64,000 bases of DNA. It comes from Parvibaculaceae bacterium. GTDB taxonomy: Bacteria; Pseudomonadota; Alphaproteobacteria; RS24. Shown one piece after another: positions 4,410-61,824 of the stretch. Position numbers and translations under genes: made by a program. The DNA lies in the NCBI GenBank assembly GCA_965219485.1, contig OZ244774.1, positions 503,093-567,092 on the forward strand. The letters run 5' to 3'. Under the pieces are notes generated by a model. That model searched no databases. It was not told the DNA's origin and was given only the letters and a program-made list of their open reading frames with translations. Position 1 is the first letter of the stretch. Every line of letters begins with the position of its first letter.

Positions 4410-4770
<361 letters not shown>

Positions 4771-40356: not shown

Positions 40357-40884
40357 TTATTTATCGCGAAAACTATCGAGGCTCACCACTTCGCCGCTAG
40401 CGCCATCTGGCTTTGGGGCTGTTTTTTGGTCGCCTTCGGCCAAGCCATAGTTATCTTCTAAGTCGGCTTCTGGGTCTTCGCTTAACGGCGGCTCGACATC
40501 AAACATCAAGCCGAAAGCTACGGATGGATCGTAGAATTTCGATAAGGCTTTAAACGGCACGACAAGGCGCTCGGCTTGATTGTTAAAACTCAAGGTAACC
40601 TGAAAGGCATCCTCGTCGACCTCAAGGTCTTCAAATTGGTTTTGCAAAACAATGGTAATTTCTTCTGGGTGGGCGGCGCGCATTTTGTCGGACAAAACCA
40701 CGCCTTCGCTTTGGGTGTAATAGGTCAGGTAAAAATGATGCTCGCCCACGAGCCCGTCTTGCGCCACTTGGCGTAATACATTTTTCACCATATCGAGGAG
40801 GGCCGTTTGAGCGCGCTCCGCATATTGGTAAAAGTCGTCAGTCGTGTCGGAAGGGGGGAGAGGTGGCGTCGTATCGTCTGGCAT
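40357..40884 (-). CDS. sspB: ClpXP adaptor SspB (alpha-type)
   Basis: GEHHFYLTYYT..., EEITIVLQNQFEDLEVDEDAFQVTLSFNNQAERLVVPFKALSKFYDPSVAFGL matches the SspB substrate-binding domain. An acidic linker and a short C-terminal tail (VVSLDSFRDK) resemble a ClpX-binding peptide. Confidence 0.85.
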   Translation of the reverse strand: MPDDTTPPLPPSDTTDDFYQYAERAQTALLDMVKNVLRQVAQDGLVGEHHFYLTYYTQSEGVVLSDKMRAAHPEEITIVLQNQFEDLEVDEDAFQVTLSFNNQAERLVVPFKALSKFYDPSVAFGLMFDVEPPLSEDPEADLEDNYGLAEGDQKTAPKPDGASGEVVSLDSFRDK

Positions 40885-40915: not shown

Positions 40916-41228
40916 CCAAAAAGTGGAAGGCTTCTGTTGCCAGGTGCCTTCCGAACCCCGCCAAAACCTGCGAAGGAATTGGACTTAATGTGAAGGTCGT
41001 GACTGCTTACGCAGCGACGGCTACTTCCGCATAGTTGTCATTTGCAACTACTAAAATGGCCCGATAACGATGGTACCATGCCGAGCGACGGAAACATCCT
41101 TTACGCCCTCGTCGATCCTGTTTCGCCCCCAAAAAGCTATAGAGATTTGGTGGAGGCGCCGGGTACTGCCCCCGGGTCCGATAGGTTTATTACGAAGTCC
41201 GTGTATCGCCATAGTCGGCAAGCCGACG
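40916..41228 (-). ncRNA. ssrA: tmRNA, circularly permuted two-piece (alphaproteobacterial) form
   Basis: Read on the minus strand. The acceptor piece ends GGACCCGGGGGCAGTACCCGGCGCCTCCACCA (CCA at 41148). A 17-nt spacer follows, and the coding piece begins GGGGGCGAAACAGGATCGACGAGGG at 41130, where GGGGGCG pairs with CGCCTCC with G3:U70. The tag ORF GCA AAT GAC AAC TAT GCG GAA GTA GCC GTC GCT GCG TAA encodes ANDNYAEVAVAA (41045 down to 41007). Terminator GGAAGGC...GCCTTCC plus T5 lies at 40952-40918. The 5' end is approximate, placed about 7 nt after a TATAAA box at 41238-41233. Confidence 0.85.
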
Positions 41229-41315
41229 CCTCTTTATATCATTTCTCACAGGTAAATAACAGGGGGGGTGCGAAAGGGATTGCGCCCGCCCACAAGAATC
41301 GTTGAATATGCGGCT

Positions 41316-54354: not shown

Positions 54355-54891
54355 CTAGTTTAAAGAGACGCCTTGCATGGTGCTCAGTTGGCCGAGCTGC
54401 TGCTCTTGGCCTTTGACGCAGTCATGGTTGGATTGAATGCGGGTCTGGGTTTCTCCAACAAAAGTCAGTAGAGCCTGTCCCAACGCATAATCGCAAGGGC
54501 GTGCCACTTGAGCGGATGATAAAGTCTCCTCGCCGTCGCGATAGATAATTTGTACTCCATCGACCAATTTTGTAGAGCCTTGTCCAAGGCGTCCAGCCTC
54601 AGACCCGGCAATAACCCCAAGCGCGCCTCCGCCAGAAGAGCGGTTGCTATCGTGGCCAATGGCAGCCCCTAAAAGGCCTCCCACTACGGCACCTATGCCA
54701 GAAGCGAGCTTCTGATTTCGCCGATTGGCGACAGTTACTTTTGCGGGCAGGACGGAGAGGATAGAGATAATTTTAACTTGCTGGCGCTGGTTGACTTGGC
54801 CAGCCGAAAACGACCCCGCTCGATCCTCTTCGCCCGGCGTGGCGCAGGCGGTTAATAAAACAAAGCTACTAATTGTCAAAATACGAAGCAT
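54355..54891 (-). CDS. Glycine-zipper (SlyB / 17-kDa-antigen-like) outer-membrane lipoprotein
   Basis: Lipobox LLTAC|AT and a glycine zipper GIGAVVGGLLGAAIG...GGGALGVIAGSEAG. The start is set at ATG 54891 (MLRILTISSF...); the track start at 54939 adds 16 aa. Confidence 0.75.
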   Translation of the reverse strand: MLRILTISSFVLLTACATPGEEDRAGSFSAGQVNQRQQVKIISILSVLPAKVTVANRRNQKLASGIGAVVGGLLGAAIGHDSNRSSGGGALGVIAGSEAGRLGQGSTKLVDGVQIIYRDGEETLSSAQVARPCDYALGQALLTFVGETQTRIQSNHDCVKGQEQQLGQLSTMQGVSLN

Positions 54892-55109
54892 GGGGTTCCC
54901 CTTATTCTCAGAGCAAACAATTTTGATATTGGCTAGCATAAGGCTTGGGGAGGGTAAAGAAAAGGTAATCGTAAGCTTTTGTTGCTCGTCGTTTGGGTGG
55001 ACTGGATTTGCTCAATTGACTTGATAGGAGAAACTCTTACTATCAAATAAGTCTCCAAATTAATAAAAATTAGGAGTCAAAATAAAAACAATAAAAAGTG
55101 GAGATTAAA

Positions 55110-55481
55110 ATGAATACGAAAATTTTCTTAAGCACCATCGTTTTGGCAGTAAGCCTTTCTGGCTGCGCTACCTTGTTCGGACCCGATTCTCAGACCGTAA
55201 ATATTCGCACGTCGGACAACAAAATGGTTAAAGGGCGACTGACCGACGGAACCCCAGTTAAGATTCCCGGTCCAGTTGTAATTCAAAAAACAGACTCCAA
55301 TCCAGTGCAAGTCTTTGTCAACAAGCGAGATTGCTCGCCTGTCACAAATGTTACTCGCTCATTGGAACCAGCATTTTGGGGAAATTTAATTAGTGGTGGC
55401 CTTCTGGGTTCAGGCACAGATTATATTACCGGTAAAATGTGGAACTATGCGTCAAACGTGACCGTGATTTGCCGCGGTTAA
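55110..55481 (+). CDS. Small lipoprotein, unknown family (paralog 1 of a tandem pair)
   Basis: Signal peptide plus lipobox LSGC|ATLFG, with SD GGAGA 6 nt upstream of ATG 55110. It shares CAT(L/M)xGxDS, RLxDGTxxK(I/V)PG, DCxP and GKMWNY...C with the next ORF. Confidence 0.7.
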   Translation: MNTKIFLSTIVLAVSLSGCATLFGPDSQTVNIRTSDNKMVKGRLTDGTPVKIPGPVVIQKTDSNPVQVFVNKRDCSPVTNVTRSLEPAFWGNLISGGLLGSGTDYITGKMWNYASNVTVICRG

Positions 55482-55496
55482 GGGAATAAAATACAT

Positions 55497-55536
55497 GGGG
55501 AGGGCACCAATGTGTGCGCCTCCCCAATTTTTTGGG
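55497..55536 (+). terminator. Rho-independent terminator/attenuator between the two lipoprotein paralogs
   Basis: GGGGAGGGCAC-CAAT-GTGTGCGCCTCCCC forms an arm pair with one bulge and is followed by AATTTTTTGGG. It overlaps the track's GTG start at 55512 for the next ORF, which argues for the ATG at 55545. Confidence 0.55.
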
Positions 55537-55544
55537 ATAAAAAA

Positions 55545-55940
55545 ATGCAAAAAATAATAAAAAATCTTGGCCTTATATTCTCGGTAGGATTTCTGATGGC
55601 GGGCTGTGCGACCATGCTGGGCGAGGATTCTGAAATTTTAACCGTCCGCGCTTCGAATGACGCAACTTTTGAAGCAAGGCTCTCTGACGGAACCATTTTT
55701 AAGGTTCCCGGCGATGTCGAAATTGTAAAGATAAACTCCCACCCAGTAAGGATTCATGTCGATAATTCTGACTGTTTGCCCACCACCACAGTCGATAGGC
55801 AGATAAGTGGCGAGTTTGTGTGGAATATCCTTGGGGTTACCTCCTCAAGTGGCATTCCTTCCAGCCCTGCCCTAGACTATCTGAACGGAAAGATGTGGAA
55901 CTATAGGGATAATTTGGTCATCCGGTGTAACCTTAATTAG
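55545..55940 (+). CDS. Small lipoprotein, unknown family (paralog 2 of the tandem pair)
   Basis: Signal peptide plus lipobox MAGC|ATMLG. It carries the same conserved blocks and the same two non-lipobox Cys as paralog 1. Confidence 0.7.
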   Translation: MQKIIKNLGLIFSVGFLMAGCATMLGEDSEILTVRASNDATFEARLSDGTIFKVPGDVEIVKINSHPVRIHVDNSDCLPTTTVDRQISGEFVWNILGVTSSSGIPSSPALDYLNGKMWNYRDNLVIRCNLN

Positions 55941-55951
55941 TTCTAAAATTG

Positions 55952-57736
55952 ATGCATTTCTTGATGTCGGTTTTACGACTTAACTTTCTGGCATTATTTG
56001 TATGCTCAGGCTTAGTGCAAGCGCTGGACCTGTCGCCTCCAGACGTCTGGTCAGGGATTGTATCCTTGCCGACGGACACAAAATACGGCGTGGAGGCGTC
56101 TTGGCCAAATAGGCATGAAGTCGCCCTGCAGAAAAAGCTTTTTAATGAGTATGACGAGCGGTTGAAAGTCGGTGATAATGACTGGGTCTGCAACTTTCCA
56201 GCACGAGCTCATATTGTTGCGCGTGCTACAGGCCGAGACCCGAGTGCTTTATTGTCTGACTGTGGCGAACTCCAAGAATTTTTGGCCCGCGTACCGTTTG
56301 ATAGGCTGTCGCTTGTATTTGCTTCGGAACAGCTGAATGCACCTGCGTCCATTATGGGCCATTCTTTCTTGAAGATGGAGGGGCTTAACGAAGATGCAGA
56401 AAATGTTTCCTACGCCATTTCTTTCTTTACCAATATTAACACTTTCAATCTTCCTGGGTTGCTTACAAGCATCCTCTTTACGGGGCGAGATGGCCATGTA
56501 GCCCTCGGCCCGTATGAGCAAATGATTATTGATTATGTCGATGTTGGGGAGCGCAGCATTTGGGAAGTCGAAATTGAGATGACTGCAGAATCCCGTCTTT
56601 TGACCCAGCTTCATATTTGGGAGCTAAGGCTGGCTGCGCCTGAGTATTTGTTTATTTCCTTTAATTGCGCCACCTTTCTGGATCGACTGCTTGCGATCGC
56701 AAGTTCAGGTGGCTACGAGCGGGCTAAGCGTTTTGTAACGCCAATAGATTTGTTTAAAAAGGCGTCGGCTATCTCGCAGCAACAGACCAAAGCAGTGCCC
56801 TCTAGGGATTGGGTCTTCCGATCGCTCGGCGGCTCGTTGGGGTTTCCAGCCTCAGACATAGAAAAGACCCTGACGAAGGACGGTGCGCCCAATCAATATG
56901 GTGATTTTTCTCCAAATGAATTGGTGTTCGCACAGGCATTGAATGAGGACCTGTTTTCAACCAATAAAATTACGCAAGACAGAGCCTTGGAAAACCATCG
57001 AGGCTTAGAGCGTGCGTTGCTTCTCAAAAACATTAACCCAAGCCAGTATTGGCTGCAAAATCATAAAACGCCGTTGAATATAAAACCTGACAGCCAAGTG
57101 TTTTCTTCCATCCAAAAAATCGGCGAGGATGAAAGGTTAAAGATTGGCTACTTGCCAGCAGCACGGCAATTTATGGACAATCGAGATGCTTATTTCGCCC
57201 AACAAGAGAACGTGTTAGCGCAGGTCACCATGTCGGTAGATATGCAAGACGATGATGTCCGGTTAGAAGAGTTCGTGGTCTTGTCTCTCAAGTCTGTTGT
57301 GCCGAAACAAAAATATTCCGATGCGTATTCGTTCAAGTTTGACTTCAGCGCTCGGCGTTTTGTCGACGGTGCGCTGCAACGCCCATTGACAGCCAATCTT
57401 GGCGGTGCCTATGGGGTTGGGTTTTCTTTATCCCCTGATGTGACGGCTTACGGCTTTATGGGTGGCGGCGTGAGAAGCAATAAAAGCCATAACACATGGG
57501 CGTTCGGTGAGATTGAAGCAGGTTTGTTAGTCAAACAAGTTTTTGCAACTAGGGGCGCTCTTGTTTTCACTCGCACCTATCCAGACACACAAGAGCACAA
57601 CGGTGTTTCGGAGCTTAAGTATGACTTTCAGATGGATTTGGCGCCTTCATCTGCTCTTTGGATGACGGCCGGATATCGAAAGTCGAGCCAGCGCGAAGAA
57701 GAGTTTTTTGAGCTGGGCATCAAGCGGTTCTTCTAG
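55952..57736 (+). CDS. DUF4105 (Lnb N-terminal-like) domain protein with probable C-terminal beta-barrel
   Basis: Signal peptide (...FVCSGLVQA|LD). DUF4105-type motifs are present: CNFPARAH, MGHSFLKM and FNCATFLD. The C-terminal ~200 aa shows an alternating hydrophobic pattern and ends ...ELGIKRFF (terminal Phe), which suggests an OMP barrel. Start ATG 55952 or 55964; it lies 11 nt after the paralog 2 stop. Confidence 0.72.
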   Translation: MHFLMSVLRLNFLALFVCSGLVQALDLSPPDVWSGIVSLPTDTKYGVEASWPNRHEVALQKKLFNEYDERLKVGDNDWVCNFPARAHIVARATGRDPSALLSDCGELQEFLARVPFDRLSLVFASEQLNAPASIMGHSFLKMEGLNEDAENVSYAISFFTNINTFNLPGLLTSILFTGRDGHVALGPYEQMIIDYVDVGERSIWEVEIEMTAESRLLTQLHIWELRLAAPEYLFISFNCATFLDRLLAIASSGGYERAKRFVTPIDLFKKASAISQQQTKAVPSRDWVFRSLGGSLGFPASDIEKTLTKDGAPNQYGDFSPNELVFAQALNEDLFSTNKITQDRALENHRGLERALLLKNINPSQYWLQNHKTPLNIKPDSQVFSSIQKIGEDERLKIGYLPAARQFMDNRDAYFAQQENVLAQVTMSVDMQDDDVRLEEFVVLSLKSVVPKQKYSDAYSFKFDFSARRFVDGALQRPLTANLGGAYGVGFSLSPDVTAYGFMGGGVRSNKSHNTWAFGEIEAGLLVKQVFATRGALVFTRTYPDTQEHNGVSELKYDFQMDLAPSSALWMTAGYRKSSQREEEFFELGIKRFF

Positions 57737-57861
57737 TTTACGCTTCCTTAAACTTATCTCCTTACAAGTCTTATTCGTGAGCGAGCCCTAGTTGGCTCTT
57801 GTCTTCTTGCGGACTATTGATAAGGTAAAACTGCCTAAAAATAAAAGAAAGGGTATTTAAT

Positions 57862-58164
57862 ATGAAACTTCTATCAACCTCTCTCCTCGTTGCCAGTGCA
57901 TTCGCTGTGGCCGTTGGAACTATGTCTGTCACACCTGCTGAGGCTAAGAAACGCGAAAAATGTTTCGGTGTTTCCAAAGCTGGTAAAAATGATTGCGCCG
58001 CAGGGCCAGGTACCAGCTGTGCCGGTACGTCAAAAGTAGATTACCAAGGCAATGCCTGGAAATTTATGAAGGTCGGAAAATGCGAAAAAATTAGCCTGCC
58101 AAAACAAAGTAATGGCATGCGTCGTCATGGTTCGCTGGAAGCGCTAAAACGCGACCCAGCTTAA
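57862..58164 (+). CDS. DUF2282-family exported Cys-containing peptide (BufA/HvfA-like RiPP precursor)
   Basis: Sec signal peptide [28 protein letters not shown]|KK. The core is [45 protein letters not shown] with Cys at residues 34, 45, 53 and 74, followed by the tail ...HGSLEALKR typical of the family. Confidence 0.85.
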
Positions 58165-58181
58165 GTCGACCTCCGACGAAA

Positions 58182-59066
58182 ATGACCAATCTTCCATGCA
58201 CCGTTGGTGTTGGTTTTAAGCCGTGTCACTTTGCTGATCTGCTGGCCTCTAAAGGGCAAGTCGGGTGGGCGGAAGTGCATGCTGAGAACTATCTTATGGA
58301 TGGTGGATCCATGCGAGCGCAGCTTTTTGAGTTGCGTTCGCATATGCCCATCTCGCTGCATGGCGTGGGGCTCTCGCTCGGCGGCACAAGCGCGCCGGAT
58401 GCAGACCATCTGGCGCGTTTGCGACGCCTGATAGATGAGCTGCAGCCCGCCCAATTTTCGGAACACCTGGCTTGGTCGATGCATAGCGCCAATGGGCAGG
58501 CGACTTTCGCCAACGACCTGCTGCCGGTGGTCTATAGCCAAGAGGCTTTGGCCCGTGTGAGCGCAAATATTGAAGCTGCACAACAGGCTTTGGGGCACAG
58601 AATTCTAATCGAAAACCCGTCGTTATATTTGGCGGCCGAGGGTTGCGATAGCGCTGCCGCGGAAACCGATTTCCTCAGCGCTTTGGTGTCACAGTCTGGC
58701 TGCGGATTGTTGCTGGATGTGAATAATATTTTTGTTACCTGCCAGAACCTCGGCTGGTGCTGCGATGATTATCTTCGCGGGCTGCCTCTTGCAGCTATTG
58801 GCGAGGTGCATTTGGCCGGCCATGCCAGCGATGTTGATGCGTCGGGCAACACGGTGCTTATCGACAATCATGGTGGCCCTGTGGCGCCACCTGTTTGGGA
58901 GTTATATGAGAAGCTACTGGCGGTCAGCGGGCCTCTCCCAAGTCTTATCGAATGGGATACGAATGTCCCAGAATGGACGGTCTTACAAGCGGAGTGCGCC
59001 AAGGCGGAAACTATTTTGAACCGTTTCAGCGCGGATAAAGAACATCCAAAGGCGTGTGTCGCATGA
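58182..59066 (+). CDS. DUF692-family multinuclear non-haem iron oxidase (MNIO; MbnB/HvfB/BufB-like)
   Basis: VGVGFKPCHF, EVHAENY, HGVGLSLG, SEHLAW, IENPS, LLDVNN, HLAGH and LIEWD, a TIM-barrel DUF692 motif series. It starts 17 nt after the precursor gene. Confidence 0.9.
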   Translation: MTNLPCTVGVGFKPCHFADLLASKGQVGWAEVHAENYLMDGGSMRAQLFELRSHMPISLHGVGLSLGGTSAPDADHLARLRRLIDELQPAQFSEHLAWSMHSANGQATFANDLLPVVYSQEALARVSANIEAAQQALGHRILIENPSLYLAAEGCDSAAAETDFLSALVSQSGCGLLLDVNNIFVTCQNLGWCCDDYLRGLPLAAIGEVHLAGHASDVDASGNTVLIDNHGGPVAPPVWELYEKLLAVSGPLPSLIEWDTNVPEWTVLQAECAKAETILNRFSADKEHPKACVA

Positions 59067-59830
59067 CCCAGCAAGCTGCTTTTTTACAGGCCTTATTCGA
59101 GCCCACGGCGGAGGTGCCGCGCGGCTTTTCTCACCCTCAAAAAGGCCAGGCTGCCGTCGAGCGGTTTTCTATTTATCGCAATAATGTGGTGGTTTCGTTA
59201 AAGCAAAACCTAGCGGATGGCTTTCCGCTCCTCGTGGCACTCTTGGGTGACGAGGCGTTTGATGCCTTAGCCGATGATTTCGTGCGCACCCACCCGCCGC
59301 GCTCGCCCTTAATGTTTGCCTATGGCGATGCGCTGCCCGATTTCATTCGTCAATTCCAGCCGTTTGCTGAAGTGCCCTATGCGGCCGACGTGGCGCGCCT
59401 TGAGCTGGCCATGCGCCACGCGGGCCATGCCAGCGATGCGGATGTGGAAACCGAGTTGCAGCTCAGTGATCCAGATACGCAAGGTCTGCGGTTGGCGCCA
59501 TGCGTGCAGCTAGTGATATCGGATTGGCCACTGCATGATTTATGGACGTTTTTAGTCGACCGCACAGATGCGCCGCAAGATATGAGCCTCAGTCAATCGC
59601 TTTTGGTCTATCGGACGCAAGATTTTGATATCGAATTAGTGTCTCTGCCTGCCGGAGGGGAGGCCTTTCTGGCCGCTCTACTGGCTGGGAAGTCGCTCTC
59701 GGTGGCTGGTCAAGCCGCACTCGATGAACGAGCGATGGAAGAGGCAGATATGGCTTGGCTTTTATCGCATCTCGTCGGGGCTGGGCTAGTGACCGCCGTC
59801 TTTCAAACCAAACCAGAAACCAAACTTTAA
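59054..59830 (+). CDS. DUF2063-family partner protein (MbnC/HvfC/BufC-like)
   Basis: FSIYRNNVVVSLKQNLADGFPLLVALLGDEAFDALADDFVRTHPP matches the N-terminal DUF2063 signature. It overlaps the DUF692 gene by 13 nt. Confidence 0.85.
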   Translation: MCRMTQQAAFLQALFEPTAEVPRGFSHPQKGQAAVERFSIYRNNVVVSLKQNLADGFPLLVALLGDEAFDALADDFVRTHPPRSPLMFAYGDALPDFIRQFQPFAEVPYAADVARLELAMRHAGHASDADVETELQLSDPDTQGLRLAPCVQLVISDWPLHDLWTFLVDRTDAPQDMSLSQSLLVYRTQDFDIELVSLPAGGEAFLAALLAGKSLSVAGQAALDERAMEEADMAWLLSHLVGAGLVTAVFQTKPETKL

Positions 59831-59843
59831 TGGAGGAAAAATA

Positions 59844-60407
59844 ATGACAAAATTCCAACAATACTGCCGCGATAGCCTATCGCTTTATCTCAAGGTTATG
59901 AACCGAATAGGGGAAGCAGCTGGCGAATGGTTTATTCCCTTGGCAGCCCGCTTTACGTTTGTGGCCGTCTTGGCGGGCTATTACTGGGCCTCAGCCATGA
60001 CCAAATTGGAAGGTGTTTTCACCCCAACGATTGGTGCCTATTACCAAATTCTACCCAGCATCACGCAAGCTGCCGAATATGACACGGACGCGATTTCTCT
60101 TTTCTTTGCGCCCATCGTTTTATTGGGTAGCTGGGCCGAGTTTATATTGCCAGCCCTCTTGCTGGTCGGCCTGTTTACCCGTGGCGCCGCCTTGGCGATG
60201 GCGGGGTTTGTGATTGTGCAGTCGTTAACCGATATTTGGGGCCACGGCGCCGAAGCAGCCACAATCGGCGCTTGGTTTGACCGAACCTCGGATTCGCTCA
60301 TTCTAGACCAGCGGTTACTTTGGGTGTTTGTGTTGGCTGTTATTGTGGTCAAAGGGGCGGGGCGTTTGTCTCTCGATAATTTTCTGAACCTCGACCGAAA
60401 ACGCTAA
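59844..60407 (+). CDS. DoxX-family membrane protein (BufD-like)
   Basis: About 4 TM helices with a DoxX-like pattern (ARFTFVAVLAGYYW, EFILPALLLVGLFTRGAALAMAG). It starts 13 nt after the DUF2063 gene. Confidence 0.78.
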   Translation: MTKFQQYCRDSLSLYLKVMNRIGEAAGEWFIPLAARFTFVAVLAGYYWASAMTKLEGVFTPTIGAYYQILPSITQAAEYDTDAISLFFAPIVLLGSWAEFILPALLLVGLFTRGAALAMAGFVIVQSLTDIWGHGAEAATIGAWFDRTSDSLILDQRLLWVFVLAVIVVKGAGRLSLDNFLNLDRKR

Positions 60408-60470
60408 TTTTCGCAAAGCTTAAGTTGCAAAATTGCAATCTTGCATTTTTGCAGCTAAGTTGTTGCGATT

Positions 60471-61403
60471 ATGAAAGATCTTGATTGGGACGATTTACGG
60501 TTTTTTCTCGCGGTGGCTGCAGCAGGTAGTCTGTCGGCGGCTGCCCGCGAGTTAAACGTCAACACCACCACGGTGTTGCGCCGCATCGGCAATTTGGAGG
60601 CGGCCCTAGAAGCGCGGCTTTTTGAGCGCCTCCGCAGCGGGTATACGCTTACGCAAGATGGCACTCGGTTGCTACAATCGTTGGAGCCGGTGGATACCAG
60701 CCTTTCGTCGCTACAAAGAGATTTTCAAGCAGATTCAGGAGCTTACGGTGGTATTGTGCGCCTGTCTGCCAGCGATGTAGTGGCTGGGGGCTTGGTGGGC
60801 CCTGCGGTGCCAAGTTTCTTAAAAACCGCGCCCGATATTGCCCTCGACATCATCACGGATCCTAGTCTATCGGGCCCGGGGGGAGCGCCAAGGGTGATGA
60901 ATGTGCTGCGCGATGTTGATGTTGCTTTGCGCTTGGCACGCCCCACGCAAGGCGACATGCTGGCCCGCAAGCTTTGCGATGTGGCTTATGGCGTTTACGC
61001 GACGCCTGCCTACGTAAAGAAATTTGGAGAGATAAATAGCGGTGGCGATTTATCGGGTCACCAAGTCATCGCATTTTCGGAAGAAGAGCGCCCCTTGGGG
61101 CCAGTTTGGTGGCTTTCGCGAGCGGAAAAAAACGCCAAAGTGGTCATGCGCTCGTCCAGCGTGGCCACTCGGATGAATGCCGTCTTCGGAGGCGAGGCCT
61201 TAGCCGCTTTGCCGTGTTTTATTGCCCAACCGCAAACGGGTTTGGTGCAGCTCATTGGGCCTGATTTAGTCGGCAACCTAGAGTTATGGCTGCTCACCAG
61301 AGCTGATTTGGCGCGCCTTGGGCATGTCCGAACTGTGATGGACTTCCTAATTCAGCACGTCAGCGAACGCGCGGCCGCTTTGGCGGGGCGAGAGGCCAAC
61401 TGA
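60471..61403 (+). CDS. LysR-family transcriptional regulator
   Basis: N-terminal wHTH LRFFLAVAAAGSLSAAARELNVNTTTVLRRIGNLE followed by a LysR substrate-binding domain. Confidence 0.9.
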   Translation: MKDLDWDDLRFFLAVAAAGSLSAAARELNVNTTTVLRRIGNLEAALEARLFERLRSGYTLTQDGTRLLQSLEPVDTSLSSLQRDFQADSGAYGGIVRLSASDVVAGGLVGPAVPSFLKTAPDIALDIITDPSLSGPGGAPRVMNVLRDVDVALRLARPTQGDMLARKLCDVAYGVYATPAYVKKFGEINSGGDLSGHQVIAFSEEERPLGPVWWLSRAEKNAKVVMRSSSVATRMNAVFGGEALAALPCFIAQPQTGLVQLIGPDLVGNLELWLLTRADLARLGHVRTVMDFLIQHVSERAAALAGREAN

Positions 61404-61571
61404 GACGCCATCTACTGAGCGCTTGAGGCCTTATCGCTTGGGTCTGAAAAATAGACAAAATGGGGGCTATGGCTTCCAGATGAAAGTGCTTGCCATGGCT
61501 GTTTTGCTTGGATAAACATTATAGATAAGAATTTTTACGAAACGAAAATTCGTTTCCAAAAGAGGCGCATA

Positions 61572-61757
61572 ATGATGGCTCAGGCCAAATTTACAAACTC
61601 CTTACACACACTGCCTTCTGGCGGTGGTGCGAGTTTGCGCGCGGCCTCGGGCGAGAGCAAGAAATTGGTTCGGCCAAACGACTTACTTACCATCCTTCTC
61701 CTAACCTGCCCCTGAGATCGGACAGGCCCATGCAAGGCGCGTTCTCAGGGGGTGATT
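61572..61757 (+). promoter_or_regulatory. Candidate leuA leader peptide ORF (47 codons, Leu-rich end) plus attenuator hairpin
   Basis: ATG 61572 to TGA 61713-61715 encodes MMAQAKFTNSLHTLPSGGGASLRAASGESKKLVRPNDLLTILLLTCP. Five Leu codons (TTA CTT .. CTT CTC CTA) fall in the last 10 codons. CCCCTGAGA (61709-17) can pair with TCTCAGGGG (61743-51), followed by GTGATTT. It sits 110 nt upstream of leuA. Confidence 0.5.
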
Positions 61758-61824
61758 TAGGAACCAAACACAACGGCAAATGCCTAAAAAAGCTAGGTAA
61801 AAGCCCCTCTAGAAGGATGATGAA

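Follow-up and report, generated by a model that had tools for sequence, protein, structure and literature searches.

Evidence for a complete Buf1-type bufferin biosynthetic operon in an uncultured marine alphaproteobacterium

Introduction

Bufferins are the largest family of peptides made by ribosomes and modified after translation (RiPPs) that depend on multinuclear non-haem iron oxidases (MNIOs), with more than 20,000 clusters catalogued (PMC11626156, PMC12452194). Their structure, biosynthesis, copper binding and phenotype were characterised in 2024. In the Buf1 peptide of Caulobacter, CysII (Cys23) and CysIII (Cys31) are converted to 5-thiooxazoles and CysI forms a disulfide with CysIV, and in a mixture of metals the peptide is selective for copper (PMC11626156). 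A survey published in 2025 equates Buf1 with the DUF2282 precursors and gives precursor, MNIO, DUF2063 protein and DoxX protein as the core layout (PMC12452194). A study from 2026 unites the bufferins with oxazolin, fontiphorin and gonophorin under the name 'captophorins' and reports more than 24,000 loci that pair an MNIO with a PME1 (DUF2063) protein (PMC13097082). Here we analyse a locus of four genes, at positions 57862-60407 of a 64,000-nucleotide stretch of contig OZ244774.1 (assembly GCA_965219485.1, Parvibaculaceae bacterium); this whole stretch is referred to as the window.

An earlier reading of the same DNA, made from the sequence only, described the locus as an uncharacterised MNIO system of the bufferin/Hvf type. 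The word uncharacterised was too strong, since the layout is the published core architecture with more than 20,000 examples (PMC11626156, PMC12452194). Pfam and NCBIfam already hold the names BufA1, BufB and HvfC/BufC, and NCBI names such proteins automatically. Two parts of the background given in that reading also need to be corrected. The oxazolone-thioamide chemistry that it attached to Hvf has been revised to 5-thiooxazole, and MbnC does not belong among the DUF2063 partners with which it was grouped, as MbnB is not encoded beside a PME1 protein (PMC13097082).

Results

Assignment to the Buf1 class

We consider it very likely that the four genes, bufA1-bufB-bufC-bufD, make up a complete operon for the biosynthesis of a Buf1-type bufferin (captophorin; Table 1). 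The MNIO protein, BufB, matches Pfam PF05114 (MbnB_TglH_ChrH) with an E value of 5.5e-91 and passes the NCBIfam equivalog NF050167, MNIO_BufB ('MNIO family bufferin maturase'), scoring 331.1 bits against a cut-off of 310. It missed the HvfB equivalog NF003818 (200 bits, cut-off 360) and the MbnB model TIGR04159 (51.9 bits, cut-off 325), together with the NCBIfam equivalogs for ApyH and ChrH. The precursor is a DUF2282 protein with four cysteines, and an EGKCG repeat was not found in its sequence. These results together indicate the Buf1 type and not the Hvf/oxazolin type, so that the bufferin half of the earlier description stands and the Hvf half, which we rejected on the HvfB score and the lack of the repeat, does not. 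A methanobactin type was likewise rejected, on the MbnB score and on a precursor that belongs to DUF2282 and not to MbnA. Each feature of Buf1 membership that can be tested by sequence comparison or structure prediction was found at the locus; the chemistry and the copper binding would follow by analogy.

In the crystal structure of MbnBC, iron site 1 is formed by His54, His90 and the bridging Glu133, site 2 by Asp163, His192 and Glu239, and site 3 by Asn166, Asp208 and His210 (PMC9060507). The equivalent site 3 residues of HvfB, N175, D242 and H244, are essential (bioRxiv 10.64898/2026.07.17.739211). Using this ligand list and alignments to 3BWW, TglH and an MbnB, we mapped the iron-site residues of BufB to H60, H95, E144, D179, N182, H210, D228, H230 and E257. 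All nine are retained, which answers the question of lost metal ligands that the sequence-only reading had raised, and none of them varies across 81 orthologues aligned with MAFFT, apart from one sequence with gaps at four of the positions. The neighbouring residue 214, a histidine in BufB, is a histidine, tyrosine or phenylalanine among the same orthologues. The seven DUF692 motifs listed in the earlier reading are all present in BufB, at residues 31, 60, 93, 143, 177, 210 and 255.

The precursor, BufA1, scores 82.5 bits against Pfam PF10048 (DUF2282; gathering score 22.4, E 2.1e-23) and has at least 7999 homologues; where a name is given, it is 'BufA1 family periplasmic bufferin-type metallophore' or else 'DUF2282 domain-containing protein'. 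Its cysteines, at residues 34, 45, 53 and 74, are invariant across 34 aligned sequences, and CysII and CysIII are separated by 8 residues. The motif E-K-C-[YF]-G...N-D-C-A-A-G-P-G-T[15 protein letters not shown] is essentially invariant in this alignment, and the C-terminal tail, LP...G..R.GSLE.L.RD, is kept family-wide; judged by the alignment, the tail is normal for the family and forms no unusual extension. The amino-terminus begins with MK and a hydrophobic stretch over residues 1-24, after which come AEA and KK, a signal-peptide pattern that recurs across the aligned sequences. The predicted core after cleavage contains 72 residues (~7745 Da), with the cysteines at core positions 6, 17, 25 and 46. 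The description of gene 1 as a Sec-exported peptide of 100 residues with four cysteines in the DUF2282 pattern thus agrees with our results. When the PDB was searched with BufA1 by sequence and by profile, only chance matches came up, with E values of 0.3 or worse.

The partner protein, BufC, scores 88.6 bits against Pfam PF09836 (DUF2063; gathering score 27.2, E 3.3e-25), and the YRNN motif by which it had previously been recognised is invariant among the homologues aligned. An AlphaFold2 model of BufC built with 48 homologues (predicted local distance difference test, pLDDT, 94.5; predicted template modelling score, pTM, 0.89) has a helical DUF2063 domain at the amino-terminus and an alpha/beta domain at the C-terminus. 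Searching the PDB with this model in Foldseek gave three matches at E <= 0.001, ranging from 3.5e-7 to 5.7e-6: 3DEE, which is NGO1945, a DUF2063 protein of Neisseria gonorrhoeae, and 8HCI_A and 8HI7_A, both TglI, which partners the MNIO enzyme TglH. NGO1945 is the prototype PME1 partner in the captophorin study (PMC13097082). The C-terminal part also gave a weak match to the RiPP recognition element (RRE) of TbiB1, and in the model this domain resembles an RRE, as has been described for BufC (PMC11626156). A PDB search with the BufC sequence found nothing.

The last protein, BufD, narrowly missed the Pfam DoxX model when scanned alone (22.7 bits, gathering score 23.6, E 1.5e-4); Pfam thus returned DUF2282, MbnB_TglH_ChrH and DUF2063 of the families previously proposed, with DoxX just below its threshold. 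We therefore aligned BufD with the gene located 3' of bufC in 25 related loci. All 26 sequences match DoxX, with a best E value of 1.7e-18, and all 26 also match the HvfX family, so gene 4 is a diverged DoxX protein. The claim that DoxX completes the set fails by a small margin for BufD by itself and is borne out by its orthologues. Hydropathy analysis (19-residue window, mean of at least 1.4) gives two broad hydrophobic regions, at residues 82-133 and 149-178. In alphaproteobacterial bufferin operons the DoxX proteins contain an insertion of ~25 residues after an invariant GHG, with the consensus ...IGAWFDR..D..I.DQRLLW (approximately residues 135-159 in BufD), whereas those of beta- and gammaproteobacterial bufferin operons are without it. 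The alphaproteobacterial variants score far under the NCBIfam HvfX cut-off. PDB sequence and profile searches with BufD found nothing.

The genes are co-directional and tightly packed. In the list of open reading frames (ORFs), gene 3 is given as 59054-59830, with a GTG start and 258 residues; counted in this way, 17 nt separate the first two genes, the second and third overlap by 13 nt, and 13 nt separate the last two. On public contigs that are identical or nearly so, gene callers place the start of gene 3 at the ATG at 59063, where the bufB/bufC junction reads ATGA. The overlap is therefore most likely 4 nt, typical of translational coupling, rather than the 13 nt first reported; the other coordinates, the strand and both gaps are unchanged. 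A GGAGG ribosome-binding site precedes bufD. A second copy was not found in the 64-kb window for any of the buf genes, Rfam returned no RNA element for the operon or its surroundings, and a terminator scan by simple consensus gave nothing convincing 3' of bufD.

Table 1. Features of the buf locus, in window coordinates
Feature	Position (nt)	Strand	Description or basis
bufA1	57862-58164	+	100 aa, DUF2282/BufA1 precursor
Predicted Sec signal peptide of BufA1	57862-57945	+	residues 1-28; by eye and hydropathy
BufA1 cysteine codons	57961-57963, 57994-57996, 58018-58020, 58081-58083	+	sequence
bufB	58182-59066	+	294 aa, MNIO (DUF692) bufferin maturase
bufC	59063-59830	+	255 aa from ATG; DUF2063 (PME1-type) partner
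bufD	59844-60407	+	187 aa, divergent DoxX-family membrane protein
Putative sigma-70-type promoter of the buf operon	-35 TTGTCT 57799-57804; -10 TAAGGT 57821-57826	+	16-nt spacer; cross-species conservation

Several points weigh against the assignment. Both the locus and the organism are known through sequence and predicted structures alone. BufC missed the NCBIfam cut-off for HvfC (61.6 bits against 142) and BufD that for HvfX (28.2 bits against 80), and both belong to diverged sub-lineages; these assignments, short of threshold for the window proteins by themselves, are recovered through the orthologues and the predicted structure. The signal peptide of BufA1 was assigned from visual inspection and hydropathy only. 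For BufA1 itself AlphaFold2 gave a weak model (pLDDT 61, pTM 0.45), which places the predicted small-protein fold and the proximity of CysI and CysIV beyond a structural check. Finally, we scanned 28 window proteins against Pfam, a set that leaves out the ORFs before 4.3 kb and most of a block at ~6.8-25.4 kb, and among these 28 we found no extracytoplasmic function (ECF) sigma factor, anti-sigma/NrsF protein, MerR/CueR regulator or copper gene. The sequence-only reading had likewise seen no flanking ECF pair or copper sensor. The link between this operon and copper is consequently drawn wholly from homology.

Promoter and regulation

Caulobacter buf1 is controlled by the ECF sigma factor SigF (PMC11626156). 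Sigma and anti-sigma genes are found in some Buf1 clusters only (PMC12452194), and their absence here is therefore not unusual. Aligning the region upstream of bufA from six relatives revealed two invariant elements, TTG..T and TA.G.T, separated by a spacer of variable sequence, with a conserved purine-rich ribosome-binding region 3' of the putative -10. A simple consensus scan reported no promoter 5' of bufA. We propose, from this pattern of conservation, that the operon has a sigma-70-like rather than an ECF-dependent promoter (Table 1), from which transcription would be predicted to begin a few bases 3' of 57826. Promoters of the MerR/CueR type typically have a spacer of 19-20 nt, and the 16-nt spacer observed here argues against a promoter of that type. 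Further 5', a conserved block at 57745-57798 is common to the two related loci L007 and L008 despite their differing upstream genes; it contains a stem-loop at 57783-57798 with compensatory changes in L007, which could be a terminator or a binding site for a regulator.

A promoter of this kind, taken together with the lack of a local ECF/NrsF pair, CueR-type promoter or copper gene among the scanned proteins, raises the question of whether the same chemistry serves another job in this organism: the handling of another metal, a function in redox or sulfur stress, or constitutive metal buffering instead of an inducible copper defence. Other metals and oxidative stress are still considered possible for the class, where the role of DoxX is also open (PMC12452194, PMC13097082), and the DoxX of this clade carries the ~25-residue insertion. 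Set against this, all characterised members of the class bind copper, including the copper-selective Buf1 (PMC11626156), a regulator may sit elsewhere in the genome, and the promoter call is a footprint in sequence. On balance we think a different job rather unlikely, if worth keeping in view.

The LysR gene reported directly 3' of the operon is indeed present, at 60471-61403. A spacer of 63 nt separates it from bufD, whose strand it shares, and buf and lysR are adjacent in all five clade relatives with enough flanking sequence (L007-L010 and L013), which could suggest that the LysR-type regulator controls buf and that the functional unit is one of five genes. However, the whole neighbourhood from ilvC to leuA is syntenic in this clade, so the adjacency has no independent weight, and an adjacent LysR homologue is absent from most of ~70 bufferin loci in other taxa. 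The 63-nt spacer between bufD and lysR (60408-60470) is almost invariant in six relatives and contains three overlapping TTGCA-N4-TGCA dyads, 8 nt apart, at 60425-60453. By their position and conservation these are probably the promoter or operator of lysR itself. The motif was not found elsewhere in the 64-kb window, the bufA and leuA promoters included, and so lends no support to control of buf by LysR, which we regard as unlikely. The spacer between lysR and leuA (61404-61824, 420 nt) contains a 47-residue ORF at 61572-61715, annotated by gene callers on identical contigs; Rfam found no leader or riboswitch in this spacer.

Host, neighbourhood and conservation

The host is an uncultured marine alphaproteobacterium of the Rhodobiaceae/Parvibaculaceae with a genome of ~1.8 Mb. 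An identical BufA1 is present on several metagenomic contigs and on one NCBI contig of 1.80 Mb, and the closest genome records are metagenome-assembled genomes of uncultured Rhodobiaceae (BufB 95% and 78% identical), followed by Parvibaculaceae (66-67%). Chromosomes among the closest relatives measure 1.84 and 1.90 Mb. An alphaproteobacterial two-piece (permuted) transfer-messenger RNA (tmRNA), identified by Rfam at 40922-41265 on the minus strand, agrees with this placement; it adjoins an sspB-like gene at 40357-40884. Rfam also identified a bacterial class A RNase P RNA at 4412-4770 on the plus strand.

The scanned window proteins are housekeeping proteins, among them those encoded by mraZ, bamD, recN, ligA, uvrD, fumC, thyA, folA, hflKC, degP, miaA, ilvIHC and leuA. 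The ORFs at ~6.8-25.4 kb look like a division and cell-wall (dcw) cluster from their sizes and order, mraZ being the one gene of this block that was scanned.

In most of 80 related loci the genes follow the order bufA-bufB-bufC, usually with a DoxX gene next. These loci span the Rhodobacterales, Hyphomicrobiales, Burkholderiales, Pseudomonas, Aeromonas and others, and their order agrees with the published core layout (PMC12452194). Only in the Rhodobiaceae/Parvibaculaceae clade (the same five relatives) is the operon located between ilvC and leuA with lysR immediately 3'. Compared with L007 and L008, the four buf genes all fall within 0.03-0.20 in the ratio of nonsynonymous to synonymous substitution rates (dN/dS), at dS values of up to 1.46, indicating that the operon is maintained by purifying selection. 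The GC content at third codon positions of bufA1 is 0.39, below that of its neighbours, which might be read as the mark of a decaying or silent relic, but with four intact ORFs, all catalytic residues kept, these low dN/dS values against both relatives and retention at the same chromosomal site in relatives with genomes of 1.8-1.9 Mb, this is very improbable.

Directly 5' of bufA, the block at 55098-57736 encodes two small lipoprotein-like ORFs (127 and 142 residues, no family match) and a 595-residue Lnb_N/DUF7840 protein, and has a GC content of 0.45-0.48 against 0.536 for the window. Only the window's own strain set has this block. At the same site in relatives there are other small lipoprotein genes, on the opposite strand, one of these genes being Bor-like and beside an identical BufA1. 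We rejected these three genes as members of the cluster on the grounds that they are confined to the strain set and replaced by other lipoprotein genes in relatives; the region looks like a variable lipoprotein slot outside the cluster. Between ilvC and this slot, a 194-residue lipoprotein-like ORF with a weak glycine-zipper match (54355-54939, minus strand) is conserved in most of the clade relatives examined.

Discussion

Taking Caulobacter buf1 as the model, we infer the following for the chemistry, export, copper binding and regulation of the Buf1-type operon described here. BufA1 would be translated with its Sec signal peptide and modified in the cytoplasm, where the iron enzyme BufB would act in complex with BufC, the RRE-like C-terminal domain of BufC docking the precursor. 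Using O2, BufB would carry out four-electron oxidations that turn Cys45 and Cys53 into 5-thiooxazole rings, with a loss of 4 Da each; these roles of the individual cysteines are assigned by analogy. The modified peptide would then be exported by Sec and cleaved after Ala28, and a disulfide would form between Cys34 and Cys74. The resulting 72-residue product may bind periplasmic copper through its thiooxazoles and so buffer excess metal. The DoxX protein would be an accessory membrane protein; in the Caulobacter model it is dispensable for the modification.

The locus has only a few mildly distinctive points: a marine host with a small genome, an apparent sigma-70-type promoter with no local stress regulator, and a diverged DoxX. 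It is possible to go further and suppose that buf1 is here a vertically inherited housekeeping locus, run from a constitutive sigma-70-type promoter instead of ECF or metal-stress circuits, and that the DoxX variant of this clade, with its insertion beside the invariant GHG, directly aids maturation or copper handling in a way that the Caulobacter model does not reveal. We offer this as a speculation with a small chance of being correct.

As one more example in a class of more than 20,000 catalogued clusters, the operon is of small general significance. Its value is modest and ecological: uncultured marine alphaproteobacteria with genomes of ~1.8 Mb keep the operon at a fixed chromosomal site and under purifying selection, which suggests that buffering copper with a modified peptide repays its cost even where oceanic genomes are small. 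The clade also appears to run its buf operon without the ECF sigma circuit of the model organism, and its diverged DoxX variant is a possible comparator for the role of DoxX in bufferin clusters.

Comparison with known systems

The methanobactin system, MbnA/MbnB/MbnC, shares with our locus the MNIO superfamily, the same nine iron-site residues and, as predicted here, the modification of cysteines to give a copper-binding peptide. MbnB is distant from our BufB (E 1e-7, at the score given above), and methanobactin differs in its oxazolone-thioamide groups, in a short leader-core precursor without a Sec signal, in an MbnC that is not a DUF2063 protein and in a product that is a secreted copper-acquisition molecule (chalkophore). 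The hvfABC and hvfX genes of Haemophilus influenzae and the fontiphorin and gonophorin systems are closer (PMC11252979, PMC13097082), pairing an MNIO with a DUF2063 (PME1) protein, with or without DoxX. They also share a signal-peptide precursor and a copper-binding product with 5-thiooxazoles, which is predicted for our locus. In contrast, their precursors contain EGKCG repeats with many modified cysteines and not the four-cysteine DUF2282 fold.

In Cupriavidus metallidurans and Legionella pneumophila, the gig (gold-induced genes) operons are bufferin clusters of the same families (PMC11626156); they differ from our locus in having a documented induction by gold and copper. The founding Buf1 cluster, buf1ABCD of Caulobacter vibrioides (CCNA_03363-03366; PMC11626156), has the same four families in the same order. 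Unlike that cluster, the locus described here has no SigF/NrsF ECF pair nearby, a predicted core of 72 rather than 68 residues with a shorter amino-terminal stretch before CysI, a diverged DoxX with the ~25-residue insertion, and a host among the uncultured marine Rhodobiaceae/Parvibaculaceae. Both contain a four-cysteine DUF2282 precursor with a Sec signal peptide (predicted here) and the same 8-residue distance between CysII and CysIII, a BufB-type MNIO, a DUF2063 partner with an RRE-like C-terminal domain and a DoxX gene in the last position.

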